From a phage, in NCBI GenBank assembly GCA_025325205.1, contig GCA_025325205.1_4770.1: 52,259 bases of DNA. One strand, given 5' to 3'. The notes below the pieces were generated by a model, which saw nothing but the letters and a program-made list of their open reading frames with translations, did no database searches and was not told the origin of the DNA. Of the stretch, positions 3,998 to 32,139 are shown piece after piece (position 1 is the stretch's first letter; the number at the start of each line of letters is the position of its first letter). Both the position numbers and the translations under genes were made by a program.

Positions 3998-4066
3998 GCT
4001 ACCTGGTATTTCCTGCGCGTGCTGTTACCTGGTATTTTCAGCACACTCGCGCTACCTGGTATTTCC
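3998..4066. repeat. three direct repeats of G(C/T)TACCTGGTATTT(C/T)C with 26-27 bp period
   Basis: Copies at 3998-4013, 4024-4039, 4051-4066 read directly from sequence; lies in the divergent intergenic region between minus-strand and plus-strand gene blocks. Confidence 0.8.
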
Positions 4067-4150
4067 GGCACACCGTCTACCGTATAGTCCCGGATGTTAT
4101 TATTATTATGAAACACAACTAAAAAAGTTCTAAAATAATGCAGATAATAG

Positions 4151-4179
4151 TTGCATCTGATACCCTGTTGTCATACTAT
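4151..4179 (+). promoter_or_regulatory. candidate sigma70 promoter (TTGCAT-N17-TACTAT)
   Basis: -35 TTGCAT 4151-4156, 17-nt spacer, -10 TACTAT 4174-4179, about 75 nt upstream of the first plus-strand early gene with AAGGGAG RBS. Confidence 0.4.
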
Positions 4180-4254
4180 AACTGCGTAGGGTAAAGGGGG
4201 TTTTAAAGCGGGACACGGGTTCCGCGCCCGCCTCACCCGAAGGGAGATTGCATT

Positions 4255-4560
4255 ATGTCCATTATCTACTTACCGCGTTCTATGTCCCAGTCACAGATCA
4301 CCAAACGTATTATCGGCAAGCGCCTGCACCAACTGGGCCTTACTGCGGAAAAGGTTGACGGGGATTGGGGTTTCGACGAGTATCTGGTAATGCTCCCGGG
4401 CAACGAAAAGTATTCCAGCACCGCGTTATATATTCGCATTAACGAGGACGGCACTGTCAGCTCTTATAGCGTAATGTACGGTCGACCAGTATGCCAAGCG
4501 AATAGCCTTTGGTCTGTGTTCTGCTTTATTACAATGATAGCTAAAGCTATCCAACAATAA
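4255..4560 (+). CDS. hypothetical early protein (paralog family with 6177-6434)
   Basis: 101 aa; N-terminal SQSQITKRIIGKR shared with ORF 6177-6434 (SMITRRIIGKR); good RBS. Confidence 0.45.
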   Translation: MSIIYLPRSMSQSQITKRIIGKRLHQLGLTAEKVDGDWGFDEYLVMLPGNEKYSSTALYIRINEDGTVSSYSVMYGRPVCQANSLWSVFCFITMIAKAIQQ

Positions 4561-4636
4561 TAGCGTGCTAATGGTTGCCCATTGTTACAGTGGGCTCCCA
4601 CTAGCAATCCGCTAGAACAACATGGAGATATTCACA

Positions 4637-5116
4637 ATGGTTACTATCACCCGCGTAGCAAAAGACGCTCGCTTCTTTGCCACTATGTCTAACGCTCGCC
4701 GTGCCTTAAAAAAGGTTCTGGATGTGGACACTGCGACAGCTAACAGCTTTATTCACCAGGAACCGCACGAGGACGGTGGTCGCTACTGGTACAGCGAAAG
4801 CGCGGTTAATAAGGCAGCTAGCGATCTGGTTGAAGCTGATAAAGCGACTGTCGTGGAAGTGACCACACAACCAGCTCCAACCGATCCCGCTAAAAGCAAA
4901 ACACGCAGCGAAACGCGCAACGGGGTCCGCCGCCCAATTAAAGGTAAATGCGCAGACGTTTGGAACGCTCTGGATAATATGTTGCCTAATGGTGTGCCAA
5001 CTATTGGTAACGTCCGTGACCTTGCGAAAGCTAATGGTTGGAATATTAATAATGCAACGATTGAATTCTACGCATGGCGTAAATTCCACGGGCTCAATAA
5101 TAAAGGGGGCAACTAA
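4637..5116 (+). CDS. hypothetical protein
   Basis: ORF 4622-5116; start chosen at ATG 4637 preceded by GGAG (4624-4627); no motif recognised. Confidence 0.4.
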   Translation: MVTITRVAKDARFFATMSNARRALKKVLDVDTATANSFIHQEPHEDGGRYWYSESAVNKAASDLVEADKATVVEVTTQPAPTDPAKSKTRSETRNGVRRPIKGKCADVWNALDNMLPNGVPTIGNVRDLAKANGWNINNATIEFYAWRKFHGLNNKGGN

Positions 5117-5118
5117 TT

Positions 5119-5193
5119 ATGTTCTACTTATTAGCTTTCTTGGTGTTCGGTGCTCCAATAGTTGCGGGCCTTTATTATACGGAGGGCAAATAA
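5119..5193 (+). CDS. candidate 24-aa hydrophobic micro-protein (MFYLLAFLVFGAPIVAGLYYTEGK)
   Basis: ATG 5119 with GGGGG upstream; single predicted TM-like segment; below the ORF-track length cutoff; its 3' end carries the RBS of the next gene. Confidence 0.2.
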   Translation: MFYLLAFLVFGAPIVAGLYYTEGK

Positions 5194-5194
5194 T

Positions 5195-5380
5195 ATGGAA
5201 ACTATAGTTCTATACTGCTGGGTTGACCTGGACGAACACGAATATTGCGTGAATATTAACAACGGACCAGTCCCGGACGCAACTTTCGCATCCTATGACG
5301 AAATGGATGCGTATGTAAAAGGTTTCCGCGAGTGCGCTCGCATTGCAAATATTAACGTGACTGTAATTTTACCGGAATGA
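5195..5380 (+). CDS. hypothetical protein
   Basis: ORF 5162-5380, start chosen at ATG 5195 following GGAGGG RBS. Confidence 0.35.
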   Translation: METIVLYCWVDLDEHEYCVNINNGPVPDATFASYDEMDAYVKGFRECARIANINVTVILPE

Positions 5381-5652
5381 TTATCATGCGTAAACCTAAC
5401 CAAAATTCTTTCGTTGAAATGGCTCGTGTTGTTCTCAACCGTCAGTCCTTCTACCTGTACCACCGTCACGAGTTTGATCTGTGGACTGAAGAGGAAACGT
5501 GCTGCCAGTACGAGATCCATACCCGGAATGGTGTAATATTCACTTCCAGTAATTATCCGGAAGTTAAAGAATACTGGGACAAGCTGATCGCTGAAGCGTA
5601 TGTTGAATTCCAGAAGCAAACTATTTACCCAATGGGCCTTCGCGCTGAGTGA
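5377..5652 (+). CDS. hypothetical protein
   Basis: 91-aa ORF; ATGA start/stop overlap with upstream gene. Confidence 0.4.
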   Translation: MIIMRKPNQNSFVEMARVVLNRQSFYLYHRHEFDLWTEEETCCQYEIHTRNGVIFTSSNYPEVKEYWDKLIAEAYVEFQKQTIYPMGLRAE

Positions 5653-5687
5653 TTATTAACGGCAACATAATTTAAGGAGTGACTATC

Positions 5688-5807
5688 ATGGCTCAAGCTA
5701 TTATCACAAAATTCGTCAACCCGACAGCCGCTCGCGCTCCGCGCGTAAAAGCAACAGGCTGGAACGGTTCTGTAACTATCACATGGCGGGACGATCTGGG
5801 CGTTTAA
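5688..5807 (+). CDS. small ORF (39 aa) terminated by TAA that is followed in frame by a further 41 open codons
   Basis: AAGGAG RBS 5674-5679, ATG 5688; TAA at 5805-5807; downstream in-frame segment 5808-5930 has no ATG/GTG/TTG start. Confidence 0.3.
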   Translation: MAQAIITKFVNPTAARAPRVKATGWNGSVTITWRDDLGV

Positions 5808-5943
5808 GGCAACCACCGCTCCGCAGCGGAGGAGCTGATCAATAAGTTTAATGCTAAAGCGGGCGTTGAATTTGAGATCCTTGCTGGTGGTGAGCTCCCG
5901 GATCAAAGTGGTTACGCGTTTATTGTTCAATAAGGGGATAATT

Positions 5944-6108
5944 ATGGAACGCAACTATTTCCAGGTTATTTATCGCGGTCGTTGCTATCACATCCGCAAC
6001 AAGTTTCGCAACCTGTCCCGCGATCAACTTGAATACGCTATTAATCTGGTGAGTGATGGTCACTTCGCTACACTATCAGAAGCGTTAGAATATGTGTCCG
6101 CTGAGTGA
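5944..6108 (+). CDS. hypothetical protein
   Basis: ORF 5851-6108; start chosen at ATG 5944 after AAGGGG RBS. Confidence 0.35.
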   Translation: MERNYFQVIYRGRCYHIRNKFRNLSRDQLEYAINLVSDGHFATLSEALEYVSAE

Positions 6109-6176
6109 CATATATATTGCCCATAGTAACAGTGGGCAATAATATGCACTTCGCATAGTTAACTGAGGAAACTATT

Positions 6177-6434
6177 ATGTCTACAACATTAAACCAGTCA
6201 ATGATCACCCGTCGCATTATCGGCAAACGTATAGCTAATCTTGCGACTATCACCGCAGAGCTGGAAACTTTCGGTAATAACGCGCGCAAATATCGCGTCC
6301 GTTGCAATGGTCTTAACGTTTATTTAACAGTGTTCGACGACGGTAAAGTTCACGCGGAACTGCATACTATGGGCCGCCTGGTTGCAACCGCGTCCACGCT
6401 GGTGGGCTTCATCAACCTGTTAAAAAACTGCTAA
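6177..6434 (+). CDS. hypothetical early protein (paralog of 4255-4560)
   Basis: 85 aa; shares N-terminal ITRRIIGKR motif and EDG/DDGKV segment with ORF 4255-4560. Confidence 0.45.
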   Translation: MSTTLNQSMITRRIIGKRIANLATITAELETFGNNARKYRVRCNGLNVYLTVFDDGKVHAELHTMGRLVATASTLVGFINLLKNC

Positions 6435-6463
6435 CTTTTAAAATTGTAACGGAGATAAATAAT

Positions 6464-6712
6464 ATGAACGCTATCCATGTAAAAGCACTAGCACCGACTC
6501 AATCCAAAGGTATGCGCTTCAAAGCAGTCGGCCTCGGTATGTGTGCAGTAACTGCAAACGACTACAACCTCAACAGTGAAGCGAACGCCGCTGCCGCTGC
6601 CCAGGAGTTACTAGATAACTACAACATGCAGAACCAGTCGCTTCAACTTAAAATACTTGGAGTTGGTACGCTTCCAGATAATACCTGGGCGGTACTATTA
6701 ACTTGTAAATAA
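6464..6712 (+). CDS. hypothetical protein
   Basis: 82-aa ORF with RBS, followed by a terminator. Confidence 0.4.
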   Translation: MNAIHVKALAPTQSKGMRFKAVGLGMCAVTANDYNLNSEANAAAAAQELLDNYNMQNQSLQLKILGVGTLPDNTWAVLLTCK

Positions 6713-6735: not shown

Positions 6736-6772
6736 GCGCCCTGTTGAAGTCCAACGGGGCGCTTTCGTTTTT
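6736..6772 (+). terminator. rho-independent terminator
   Basis: GCGCCC (6736-6741) / GGGCGC (6757-6762) stem with TTTCGTTTTT tail, directly after the early gene block. Confidence 0.6.
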
Positions 6773-6904
6773 GTACCCGCACCACTTCCCGCGTTACCCT
6801 GCTGACCACATGTTACTCACCCATTCCTCCACCATTCGCGCTCTAAGAACCTAACTCCTTCCTCCATACATTACCATTGACTCCAATTTAATCGCCTTAT
6901 ACGC

Positions 6905-7062
6905 CCTTACAGCGATCCACTCCCTGCTTCCCTGTACGCGATTTTGGGGCATTTTCGCCCCTCACTGCCACCCTTACACTGATCCAACCGCTTTATCGCG
7001 CTACGTGCCCCGTTTTCGCGGCTATTTTCGCTTTATGGGCGACCCGCTACACCGATCCCAGC
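6905..7062. repeat. three spaced copies of a GATC-containing motif ACA(G/C)(C/T)GATCC plus TTTTCGC repeats in a noncoding region
   Basis: GATC at 6914-6917, 6981-6984, 7054-7057 each inside the conserved 10-13 nt motif; no ORF with RBS in this region. Confidence 0.6.
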
Positions 7063-7516
7063 CACCCAACCTCACCGAAAGCCACCTTTCACCGAAAAAT
7101 CCGACATTTATACCATAAAATAGAATCGTTTTCGGGCTACAAAAATTCAAACTCAAAAATCCGATTCACTTCGAGAGTCACTTCAACAAAAATCGCTTGC
7201 AATCCAGTTTTCTTTTGTGTTAGACCGCGTGCCCGCATTATGCGCGTGCGCGAGCTTGTGAGCGCCTCGTTGTTGCGCAACAAATATTTCTTATATTGTT
7301 CGTATATTTTCGCTTAATATACGAAATGAAAGGAGGTAAGTGCATGAAAAATAAGGTAAAAATGTGTATGTGTGTGTATTTATATAAATTTTATAAAGAT
7401 TTTTTATTTTTGAGTTGTCTACTGACGACCCCCACGAGACCCCTTTATAAATAATATAAGAAATAAATTTCGCAACATTGCCAAATTTCCCCTTTAAAAA
7501 CAAGCATTTCAGTATC

Positions 7517-7587
7517 GTGTTAATTTATTGTTAAAAACCTATAAATTGTTAATTTATATTTAAAGCATGTTAAATTTGTTAAATATA
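7517..7587. repeat. five TGTTAA(T/A)(T/A)T repeats in an AT-rich stretch
   Basis: tgttaatttat, ttgttaaaaac, ttgttaatttat, tgttaaatttg, ttgttaaatat read from sequence. Confidence 0.6.
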
Positions 7588-7616
7588 CCCTTCAGACTGT
7601 TGTAATTTTTTGCAAA

Positions 7617-7683
7617 AGCAAAAACTTTGCATATACAAAACACCGCAAAACATCACAGTTGCAAATAGCAAAAACTTTGCATA
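7617..7683 (+). promoter_or_regulatory. two copies of 17-bp element AGCAAAAACTTTGCATA (inverted-repeat core GCAAA-N3-TTTGC) overlapping candidate -35/-10 hexamers
   Basis: Copies at 7617-7633 and 7667-7683; TTGCAA/TTGCAT hexamers within; lies about 60-130 nt upstream of the first gene of the replication block (7745). Confidence 0.45.
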
Positions 7684-7744
7684 AATTAAAACTTGGCAAC
7701 TGAATTTCAAAATCATTCGATTTATTATTATCAAGGGTGAGGTT

Positions 7745-26125: not shown

Positions 26126-26203
26126 AGTTATACATATTTGAAAACGCGCGGATGGTCAGCGTGCTGAAAGATACAATGTGTTCAACTAATAAGGTAAATT
26201 ATT

Positions 26204-26965
26204 ATGATCAAATATGTCCAATTACTTGGTGAGATTGTTCCGGAAGATGTATTGAATAAGTGCCTGTTCGATGAAGACGGGTTTGTAAAACATTATGTAG
26301 ATACACCTTCCCAGTTTGCATCTCACTCGGCTCTTGGATTTGTAATTCGAGCTGGATATGCAGTGGATGTGTTGAACGACATGAGTCCTACAGTCACTGT
26401 TTTTGTTGAAGGTATGGACGTACATGATCTTATGAATTTAAAGACCGTTTATAACACGCATGTGACACCACCACGTAATGCACTTTACAAATGGCGTATC
26501 AATACTTCTGTTAGTAGAATCCAAAAACCAGCAGAAGAAGCGGAAGCGGATGCCAAGAAGTACACGACATCTACTCAGAAACTAGCTGGTATGATGGAGG
26601 ATGTACTTACGAGCGCCTTTAAAGTTGATCGTAACAAAGAAGGTGAGCCAGAAGTATTCATTGATGAAGCATTAATTAAGAAAGATCATATCCAGGAGAT
26701 TAAAGCTCCACGTCCGAATAAATATATGCGCAAAATTAAAACTTTTGAATCGCATGATATTAACGGTAGCCCGATTGAAATTGATGTATGGGTTGACGTG
26801 TACGACGTAATTAAAGCATTCAATGTAACCAGTGGGCCCATGCAACATGCACTGAAGAAAGTGCTGTGTGCTGGTGAGCGCGGTCATAAAGACTTGCTGA
26901 AAGACCTCAACGACATCATTGCATCCGTTGAGCGTGAAATTGAAATGGTTAAGGAAGGTAATTAA
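26204..26965 (+). CDS. hypothetical protein embedded in the 7-deazaguanine module
   Basis: 253-aa ORF between queE and gat-queC; no motif recognised. Confidence 0.45.
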   Translation: MIKYVQLLGEIVPEDVLNKCLFDEDGFVKHYVDTPSQFASHSALGFVIRAGYAVDVLNDMSPTVTVFVEGMDVHDLMNLKTVYNTHVTPPRNALYKWRINTSVSRIQKPAEEAEADAKKYTTSTQKLAGMMEDVLTSAFKVDRNKEGEPEVFIDEALIKKDHIQEIKAPRPNKYMRKIKTFESHDINGSPIEIDVWVDVYDVIKAFNVTSGPMQHALKKVLCAGERGHKDLLKDLNDIIASVEREIEMVKEGN

Positions 26966-28383: not shown

Positions 28384-28917
28384 ATGGGTTACACTGTTAT
28401 TCGTTCACATGAGATTTGCGCTGGTCATCGTGTTGTAGGTCATGAAAGTAAGTGTCAACACTTTCACGGTCACAACTATAAGTTCCATTTTAAAGTTGCA
28501 CCAAAGAAAACATTGTCGGAAGGTTACGTCAAATCTGTAAGTGGATTTGCTCTGAATGGCTCTCTGGACGATGTGGGCCGCGTTATAGACTTTAGTGTGG
28601 TTAAAACTACGCTGTGTCAGTGGTTGGAAGATAATTGGGATCATAAGTTCCTGCATTGGGAACATGACAGCGTAATTAATTCACTTATTATTGTTGCATC
28701 AACTAAGTTCGCGCGTGAAAATAATCTAGTAAAGGACGAAGATTATGATCCTTTCGTTAATTCACTGGTATCTTTACCGTTCAACCCAACTGCGGAAAAC
28801 TTAGCTGCATATATGGTTGACGTAATTGGTCCTCAATTACTTGACCAGTATGGTGTTGAACTGGTAGAATGCACCATTGAAGAAACGTCCAAATGCCATG
28901 TTAACTATTGCAAATGA
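28384..28917 (+). CDS. queD: 6-carboxy-5,6,7,8-tetrahydropterin synthase (QueD-like)
   Basis: CAGHRVVGHESKCQHFHGHNY contains the CxxxHGH zinc/catalytic motif of the PTPS/QueD family. Confidence 0.7.
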   Translation: MGYTVIRSHEICAGHRVVGHESKCQHFHGHNYKFHFKVAPKKTLSEGYVKSVSGFALNGSLDDVGRVIDFSVVKTTLCQWLEDNWDHKFLHWEHDSVINSLIIVASTKFARENNLVKDEDYDPFVNSLVSLPFNPTAENLAAYMVDVIGPQLLDQYGVELVECTIEETSKCHVNYCK

Positions 28918-28943
28918 TTGACCACACAAGGAAACTGTAAACC

Positions 28944-29558
28944 ATGAACGAATTTACAAAGATGACAAACAGAGCAGAGATTTCGCACAGCATTGAAAAG
29001 ATTTTAAAGTTGATTGAAGGTGGGGATGATCTGCGTGAAGGCTTGGTTGAAACTCCATCACGAGTCGCTAAAGCATTTGAAACATGGTTCAGCGGTTACG
29101 ATGTTGATATTGCATCCTTGTTCAAGACCTTTGAAGATGGTGGGGAAAACTGCAATGAAATGGTTATTGTTCGTGATATTCCTGTTTACAGTCATTGCGA
29201 ACACCATATGGCCCCTATTATCGGTCACGCTGTCGTGGGGTATGTTCCTAACGGTCGCATCGTGGGGCTTAGTAAACTGTCTCGCGTGGTTGATGCTTTT
29301 AGCCGTCGCTTGCAAGTCCAGGAGCGTTTAACTAACCAGATTGCGGATGCTATCGTAGAACACTTAGACCCGAAAGCTGTGTGTGTTTACATCGATGCAA
29401 AACATATGTGTATGGAGTCGCGCGGTGTCAAGCAAGTTTGCGGAAGCTCAACCATTACTAAAGCATTCCGTGGGCGTACTGCATTGGGCGATGGTGTATT
29501 ACCTGATGTGACGGGTGACACATGGCGTCGGGAATTTCTTGAAGCGTGTAAGAAGTAA
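28944..29558 (+). CDS. folE: GTP cyclohydrolase I (FolE)
   Basis: VYSHCEHHMAPIIGHAVVGYVPNGRIVGLSKLSRVVDAFSRRLQVQERLT: conserved CEHH zinc motif and GLSKL...QVQER segment. Confidence 0.8.
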   Translation: MNEFTKMTNRAEISHSIEKILKLIEGGDDLREGLVETPSRVAKAFETWFSGYDVDIASLFKTFEDGGENCNEMVIVRDIPVYSHCEHHMAPIIGHAVVGYVPNGRIVGLSKLSRVVDAFSRRLQVQERLTNQIADAIVEHLDPKAVCVYIDAKHMCMESRGVKQVCGSSTITKAFRGRTALGDGVLPDVTGDTWRREFLEACKK

Positions 29559-30589: not shown

Positions 30590-31582
30590 ATGGATTTACT
30601 TGATGCTTTAAAGTTTGTTCAGGGTTCTGTAGCTAAGAAAGAACTCCAGGAAGGTTTAACTCACTTCCGTATTGTTGATGGTACTGTTCGCGGGTTCAAC
30701 GGAACTATTTCATTGTGTAGTCCAGTACCACTGAACATTGACTGTACACCGAAAGCCGAACCGATGCTCAAGGCTATTGCAGCATGTGACGAAGCTGTAC
30801 AGATGACAATGTTAGCGAACGGTAAGTTGAGCATTAAGTCTGGTGGCTTTAAGGTCAGTGTAGACACTCTTCAGAAACCAACTGCGCACGTAGAGCCAGA
30901 AGGAACAATTCACGAAATAGACGGTCAGCTTTTTCTCAACGGTTTAAGCCGCGTAACGCCGTTTATAAGCGACGATGCTTCCCGCCCGTGGTCTTGCGGC
31001 GTGCTGGTAAAACAGGGCAGCATGTACGCAACCAACAACGCTAGTATTATACAATATTGGTTCGGTGCTGTATTCCCTGTCGATTGTGTTGTGCCACGTA
31101 TGGCCATCAAAGAATTATTGCGTATTAAAAAGCCACCAGTAAGAATTCAATGTACAGATACCAGTATGACATTTCACTACGAAGACGGTTGCTGGTTGCG
31201 TACCCAATTGCTGGAATTAAAGTGGCCCAACATTGACAAGATAATCGAGCGTACAGAAAAGGGGTCTGACGTCTATACGCTTGATACTGAGCTTTTTAAC
31301 TGCTTAGAGAAAATAAAACCGTTCTGTGAACGTGATGGGCGTATCTACATGGAAAATGGTGTTGTGCGCACCCATTACAACGAGCTGGATGGTGCTAGTG
31401 CAATGTTCCGTGAATCTAAGTCAATTGGCGTGTATAATATAGATCTCATTATGCAGTTGAAAGGACTTGCAACGGACTGGGATGCCTCTCGTTTCAATGA
31501 AAAGGACGAAAGGGGTCTTTCAACTCCTATTATTTTTTATGGTGAAAATCTACGTGGGGTAATTGTAGGATTTCGTCTATGA
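30590..31582 (+). CDS. DNA polymerase sliding clamp (beta-clamp/DnaN-like)
   Basis: FISDDASRPWSCGVLVKQG...YATNNASII resembles the beta-clamp domain-II signature (F-x-S-x-DE-x-RP-x-L-x-GVL ... ATDG-RLA); N-terminal GTVRGFNGTISL like the clamp GTD strand; about 330 aa. Confidence 0.5.
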   Translation: MDLLDALKFVQGSVAKKELQEGLTHFRIVDGTVRGFNGTISLCSPVPLNIDCTPKAEPMLKAIAACDEAVQMTMLANGKLSIKSGGFKVSVDTLQKPTAHVEPEGTIHEIDGQLFLNGLSRVTPFISDDASRPWSCGVLVKQGSMYATNNASIIQYWFGAVFPVDCVVPRMAIKELLRIKKPPVRIQCTDTSMTFHYEDGCWLRTQLLELKWPNIDKIIERTEKGSDVYTLDTELFNCLEKIKPFCERDGRIYMENGVVRTHYNELDGASAMFRESKSIGVYNIDLIMQLKGLATDWDASRFNEKDERGLSTPIIFYGENLRGVIVGFRL

Positions 31583-32139
31583 GAAAAGCATTGCCGTTAC
31601 CGCCGTACACTTATCTTCATGAGTGCTTCGACTATAACGAAATTACTGGTGTCCTCACATGGAAAGTGAGGCCCTCACATCATTTTAAATCCGAAAGAGC
31701 TCGAAAGATCGCAAACACACTATTTTCTGGAAAACAAGCTGGAAATGTTGTCACATGTAGTGGTAAGAAATACTTACAAGTTACAATAGATAGAAAATTA
31801 TATCTTGTTCATAGAATTTGTTATAAAATGTATTATAACAAAGAACCGACTGTAATCGATCATGACGATGGAAATGGACTTCACAACTGGATATTAAACT
31901 TAAATGATGGTACAATGTCCGACAATATGAAAAACAGGAAGATGTTAGAATGCAATTCCACTGGTGTTACTGGTGTGAGTCTGACTAAATTAGGGATGTG
32001 GAATGCACATATAATGGTTGGATATAAGGGTTATAATCTATATACAGGCCCTGATTTGTTTGAAGCCTGTTGTGCTAGAAAATCCGCTGAACTATTATAT
32101 GGTTTTAATAAAAATCACGGTAAAGAGAGAAATCTATGA
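31579..32139 (+). CDS. HNH homing endonuclease with AP2-type DNA-binding domain
   Basis: IDHDDGNGLHNWILNLN (HNH core) and GVTGVSLTKLGMWNAHIMVGYKGYNLYTGPDLFEACCARKSAEL (AP2-like); AT-rich relative to flanks; ATGA overlaps on both sides. Confidence 0.7.
   Translation: MRKALPLPPYTYLHECFDYNEITGVLTWKVRPSHHFKSERARKIANTLFSGKQAGNVVTCSGKKYLQVTIDRKLYLVHRICYKMYYNKEPTVIDHDDGNGLHNWILNLNDGTMSDNMKNRKMLECNSTGVTGVSLTKLGMWNAHIMVGYKGYNLYTGPDLFEACCARKSAELLYGFNKNHGKERNL

Follow-up and report, generated by a model that had tools for sequence, protein, structure and literature searches.

A probable recent nonsense allele of a conserved early gene in a Nonagvirus coliphage

A divided reading frame in the early operon

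The DNA analyzed here, a phage contig of 52,259 nucleotides referred to as the window (GenBank assembly GCA_025325205.1, contig GCA_025325205.1_4770.1), carries at positions 5688 to 5933 of its plus strand a short reading frame that is divided by one in-frame stop codon. The Shine-Dalgarno sequence AAGGAG is found at 5674-5679, 8 nt before the ATG at 5688-5690, and its GGAG is kept in relatives. From this ATG, 39 sense codons lead to a premature ochre codon, TAA, at 5805-5807 (truncated ORF 5688-5807), which is followed in the same frame by 41 more sense codons (5808-5930) and a second TAA at 5931-5933, such that the translation of the full frame reads MAQAIITKFVNPTAARAPRVKATGWNGSVTITWRDDLGV, stop, GNHRSAAEELINKFNAKAGVEFEILAGGELPDQSGYAFIVQ, stop. 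The strong ribosome binding site with its ATG, the positions of both stops and the lack of an internal start in 5808-5930 had already been described in an earlier sequence-only reading and are all borne out by direct reading of the DNA. Reinitiation downstream of the first TAA was considered and rejected, because codons 41 to 81 contain no in-frame ATG, GTG or TTG. A GTG at 5679 is also in frame, every homologue nonetheless begins with MAQAII at the ATG. A stop-free run of 41 codons is expected by chance with a probability of (61/64)^41, i.e. about 0.14 or one in seven; hence, the shape of the ORF alone proves nothing and homology has to decide.

The divided gene belongs to an early operon (4255-6712) in a region whose gene content varies among relatives. 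This operon contains two pairs of ancient paralogues, one of the family phrog_13865 (4255-4560 and 6177-6434) and one of the family phrog_3199 (5688-5933 and 6464-6712). The second phrog_13865-phrog_3199 pair is directly adjacent, which suggests an old duplication of a module. The phrog_3199 paralogue at 6464-6712 on the plus strand encodes 82 aa, shares 34% identity with the interrupted gene (pairwise E = 2e-8; profile E = 8.3e-26) and is intact in 18 of the 18 loci examined. A strong intrinsic terminator-like hairpin with a T-run at 6736-6772 on the plus strand, made up of an 11-bp stem with 8 GC pairs and the tail TTTCGTTTTT, closes the early operon.

Several other elements were observed in this region. 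The ORF at 5377-5652 (91 aa) overlaps the upstream gene by 4 nt and matched no Pfam or PHROG family. Its exact protein sequence occurs on this contig alone. Among the relatives examined, the phages PD328 and BRET and two further loci (L037 and L043) have an orthologue and the others, including JenK1 and JenP2, lack one; judged by this distribution, it is a variable accessory gene. An exact look-up of the 85-aa neighbour protein found no record in the protein collection. Just upstream of the early operon, in an intergenic region of about 750 nt between divergent gene blocks, three direct copies of a 21-nt motif (similar to TACCTGGTATTTyCrGCAC) are placed 26-27 nt apart at 4000-4073; these repeats may be operators or associated with a promoter. 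Beyond the terminator, in an AT-rich stretch (6770-7740), a BRET_69-like ORF of 45 aa (7317-7451) shows in-frame stops or truncation at five loci (L039, L040, L043, L019 and L026). This ORF is unlikely to be a real gene, and the region of about 1 kb appears to be non-coding.

Intact relatives and the encoded protein

Megablast searches against GenBank phages identified the window as DNA of a Nonagvirus (9g-like, Queuovirinae) coliphage, which is 93-96% identical to vB_EcoM_PD328, BRET, JenK1, JenP2 and others. The collections of plasmids and complete E. coli genomes searched with the window gave no match, hence it can be assigned to a phage. A single contig of a single run provides the only record of the 39-aa product, namely the Logan contig SRR17460945_147 (55,091 bp; locus L020), to which the window is identical over the compared 6,120 bp and in which the frame has been called as a 39-aa gene. 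Intact copies of the Nonagvirus protein are also filed at NCBI under Shigella sonnei, Shigella boydii, E. coli and Sulfoacidibacillus thermotolerans; the respective contigs of about 58-61 kb are whole phage genomes within assemblies of bacterial isolates, reflecting a carrier state or contamination.

The frame at 5688-5933 is the orthologue of an 81-aa early-region protein annotated as BRET_73 (AZF88979.1), 9g_00036 (AHN84552.1) and bas20_0073 (phage FritzHoffmann), further orthologues being UVK80435.1 of PD328 and gp71 of JenK1. The gene is 84-94% identical at the nucleotide level to its counterparts in PD328, BRET, JenK1 and JenP2 and is framed by the same flanking genes (BRET_72 and BRET_74/75). 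When the stop is read as Tyr, the 81 codons give 70-98% amino-acid identity to the orthologues of 81-82 aa. At the syntenic position, all 12 distinct GenBank relatives possess an annotated and uninterrupted CDS of 246-249 nt, the translation of which is collinear with the window frame across all 81 codons. The alignment with relatives, which the sequence-only reading had proposed as a check, hence shows one ORF aligned from end to end with intact genes and not two unrelated segments. At codon 40, 11 of the 12 relatives have TAC (Tyr) and JenP1 has ATA (Ile); compared with the TAC-bearing relatives, the window differs in this codon by one base, an A in place of C at position 5807 of the plus strand, i.e. 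a transversion that turns Tyr40 into TAA. The same picture emerged from a collection of 5.8 billion proteins, in which 61 clusters (about 240 distinct intact sequences from hundreds of contigs) were matched. The cluster representatives all measure 80-83 aa, and at least 90% of them have Tyr40. The entry 9g_00036 carries the note 'TetR family transcription regulator', which was disregarded, because it is supported neither by Pfam nor by the fold search.

The comparison of the 12 relatives revealed a pN/pS ratio of 0.35 for codons 1-39 and of 0.19 for codons 41-78, which marks the part after the stop as the more constrained half of the gene and, by its substitution pattern, as real coding sequence in the relatives. 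The protein-like composition that had been attributed to 5808-5930 thus finds its counterpart in coding conservation. Likewise, 14 of the 25 invariant columns are situated after position 40 (N42, H43, R44, A46, E48, E49, G68, E69, L70, P71, D72, Y76, F78 and I79). Besides the base at 5807, changes private to the window comprise three synonymous substitutions and one non-synonymous substitution in the gene, the latter being A45S (at 5820), which affects a site where at least 90% of the relatives' sequences have Ala. Downstream of the stop, A45S and one synonymous change are the private differences, which are too few for a test of relaxed constraint; they appear compatible with a short spell of relaxed constraint, the one substitution A45S being statistically not meaningful. 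The window copy therefore shares the early-operon synteny and the length with its Nonagvirus orthologues, whereas theirs are uninterrupted and the window has the TAA and the private A45S.

The repaired protein (with Tyr at position 40) matches the phrog_3199 profile with E = 5.8e-29, residues 1-80 aligning with profile positions 1-80 of 181. This family has no assigned function, and while its members are full-length, the window copy can yield the first 39 residues only. With a profile search, over 850 relatives with lengths of about 75-95 aa were retrieved, to which the motif MAQAIxTKY...NHRxAAE is common; those loci that were examined come from phages and metagenomes and all of them are labelled 'hypothetical'. 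Neither the protein nor its paralogue nor distant homologues could be assigned to a family by searches of Pfam, NCBIfam and the PDB sequences. Similarly, the literature search on phrog_3199, the locus tags and Nonagvirus in connection with nonsense or escape mutants returned nothing on the gene, and two preprints naming Bas20 do not map anything to it. A structure was predicted with AlphaFold2 from a 69-sequence alignment for an intact homologue (P0002) that is 98% identical to the repaired window protein (mean pLDDT 84.9, pTM 0.71). The modelled topology is β1 (3-10), β2 (19-24), β3 (27-32), helix (38-58), β4 (64-69) and β5 (75-80), i.e. a β3-α-β2 fold; the N-terminal domain of HicB or TTHA1756-like proteins and RNase H-like β3-α-β folds are among the closest known systems. 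In this model, the stop at codon 40 falls where the helix begins. The 39-aa fragment would hence correspond to the three strands β1 to β3, lacking the helix, β4, β5 and most of the invariant residues, and the former C-terminal half on the plus strand (codons 41-81 and the original TAA, 5808-5933), which in relatives forms the helix and β4-β5, would now remain untranslated. From predicted structure and conservation together, we infer that the allele is effectively a null allele.

The origin of the premature stop

The window is not the only genome in which this gene is interrupted. When IMG/VR was scanned with a DNA pattern and JGI/ENA metagenomes were scanned as well, a PD328-like human-gut phage with a TGG to TGA change at Trp33 was detected, which is present in three assemblies (L035, JGI 3300045988; L036, Logan SRR5106431; L041, ENA UEYF01000106) with the gene at 4001-4246 in each. 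These three were not counted as several events, because they are 100% identical over 7-8 kb and represent one strain. Another locus (L037, SRR22424581; gene at 2017-2262), located by a look-up of the 32-aa product, has TGG changed to TAG at Trp33. It is 96.3% identical to the TGA strain and its gene neighbourhood is different; since the nucleotide change is also a different one, it represents an independent event. Three independent lineages thus carry a stop in the gene, namely TAA at codon 40 and TGA and TAG at codon 33. We attach no meaning to the shared codon 33, because the TAG allele was found via the same 32-aa product (ascertainment bias). The unbiased scans yielded about one disrupted copy in 14 distinct phages, and ten other possible truncated products, derived from two common sequence backgrounds, are absent from the protein collection. 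In about 19 neighbouring genes at 18 loci, no in-frame stops occur except in the doubtful 45-aa ORF. The nonsense alleles show no downstream decay beyond the single A45S of the window. This pattern fits a gene that is of benefit overall and dispensable in some settings, in which null alleles arise sporadically and are rare and young.

We regard it as probable, at roughly 80%, that the window carries a real and recent null allele of a conserved early accessory gene, which arose by nonsense mutation. A C-to-A transversion at 5807 would have converted the Tyr40 codon TAC to the ochre codon TAA; initiation would persist at the intact Shine-Dalgarno sequence and ATG, and termination after 39 residues would leave a fragment with the first three β-strands that is presumably non-functional. 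The loss of the gene may be tolerated, possibly owing to the intact paralogue at 6464-6712. A coding role that ended only very recently would explain the protein-like look of the 41 downstream codons. Across the 12 genomes and 61 clusters, the relatives have one uninterrupted ORF from which the stop is separated by one base in a sense codon, as is expected for a nonsense pseudogene. It would be an ordinary gene-inactivating mutation and not a case of programmed readthrough. From the three alternatives that had been offered in the sequence-only reading, the recent nonsense mutation is favoured by the intact relatives, the TAC at the stop site and the pN/pS of 0.19, the sequencing error is disfavoured by an otherwise clean contig, and readthrough or suppression finds no support.

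Similar cases are known from phages such as T4 and lambda, the classical conditional-lethal ochre (UAA) mutants of which likewise arise from one base at a Tyr codon and make a truncated product except in a suppressor host. The window allele differs from them, since it is natural, was found in an assembled genome, affects a probably non-essential accessory gene and gives no sign of a suppressor host. An annotation of the frame at 5688-5933 should treat it as a pseudogene or null allele, a disrupted version of an early gene conserved in Nonagvirus, and neither as a case of recoding nor as two genes. Moreover, this natural null allele and the two independent ones indicate that this widespread family of small proteins is dispensable in at least some hosts, and the natural knock-outs provide ready material for testing the function of phrog_3199.

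A sequencing or assembly error appears unlikely. In that case codon 40 of the phage would truly be TAC, and a consensus error or a minority variant taken up by the Logan assembler would account for the A at 5807. The TAA allele is indeed a singleton from one contig of one run. Furthermore, Nonagvirus DNA carries 7-deazaguanine modifications, genes of the queuosine/archaeosine pathway are annotated in BRET, and such a modification could upset base-calling at G, which is the base on the minus strand of the relatives at 5807. However, among the approximately 72 of 88 BRET proteins that have a counterpart in the window, an in-frame stop is found in BRET_73 only and a frameshift in none. In 19 surrounding genes, 22 synonymous and 12 non-synonymous substitutions are private to the window. 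The synonymous share of 65% resembles that of curated isolate genomes (34:20 for BRET) and not the about 25% expected from random errors, hence the private differences of this contig have evolved and are not random. A real mutation is also plausible a priori, because independent natural nonsense alleles exist in this gene, one of which has been reproduced in JGI, ENA and Logan assemblies.

It might further be asked whether the loss of the gene is adaptive, which we consider quite improbable. The phrog_3199 protein could be sensed by a host defence, for example as a trigger of abortive infection, or be costly in its presence, and the null alleles would then be recurrent escape mutants. Three independent nonsense events in a gene of 81 codons, the stop-free state of the neighbouring genes apart from the 45-aa ORF and the position within the variable early accessory region are in line with such a scenario. 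Yet ascertainment bias contributes to this count, because it was the stop that led to the choice of the window, and the TAG allele was reached via the 32-aa product; the unbiased scans provided one disrupted allele only, and the ten other possible truncated products are missing. The gene as a whole is under purifying selection with its about 240 distinct intact sequences, and the literature searched holds no link of it to any defence system. If the scenario were true, the three nonsense alleles would be natural escape mutations captured in environmental sequence data. That nonsense alleles have arisen in the gene repeatedly and independently is a small lead.

Finally, a decoding of the TAA by a suppressor tRNA or a near-cognate tRNA, frequent enough to give useful full-length protein, perhaps beside the short form, is very improbable. 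It is true that the ribosome binding site, the start codon and the entire downstream frame are intact, that a Tyr-inserting ochre suppressor would give back the wild-type protein, and that stops recur in the gene in other phages, one of them being UGA-C at W33, a classically leaky context. However, position 40 is a sense codon in all relatives, such that the stop is not conserved as it would be for readthrough, and its context is UAA followed by G, which terminates efficiently in E. coli. ARAGORN detected no tRNA genes in the window, which covers 52 kb of the approximately 59-kb genome, or in the complete BRET genome, which argues against a suppressor encoded by the phage. The RNA structure 3' of the stop is not significant (MFE z = -1.57; 14 of 200 shuffles fold as well), and the three nonsense alleles represent three different stop codons at two positions, each of them rare, which is the pattern of sporadic mutation. 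Programmed readthrough as in the coat extension A1 of Q-beta shares the in-frame stop followed by a long open continuation. Programmed cases such as A1 rely on a conserved, leaky stop (UGA or UAG) and yield two functional products, whereas the UAA-G stop of the window occurs in one genome only and splits one compact domain.

Other observations in the window

Outside the early region, an ORF of 186 aa (31579-32139) is inserted exactly between two DNA polymerase genes that abut in BRET. It has a weak match to HNH_3 (E = 0.0018, below the Pfam cut-off) and an H-N-H-like motif, hence it probably encodes a free-standing homing endonuclease. The DNA-modification cluster for 7-deazaguanine is mosaic (28384-29555 and around 26200-26960): the FolE- and QueD-like genes are 72-82% identical to those of BRET, the flanking genes 95-100%, and no counterpart of BRET_32 is present. 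The tail-fibre and distal-tail module at 34200-43900 is 62-80% identical to BRET and several BRET genes find no match there, which suggests an exchanged host-range module.
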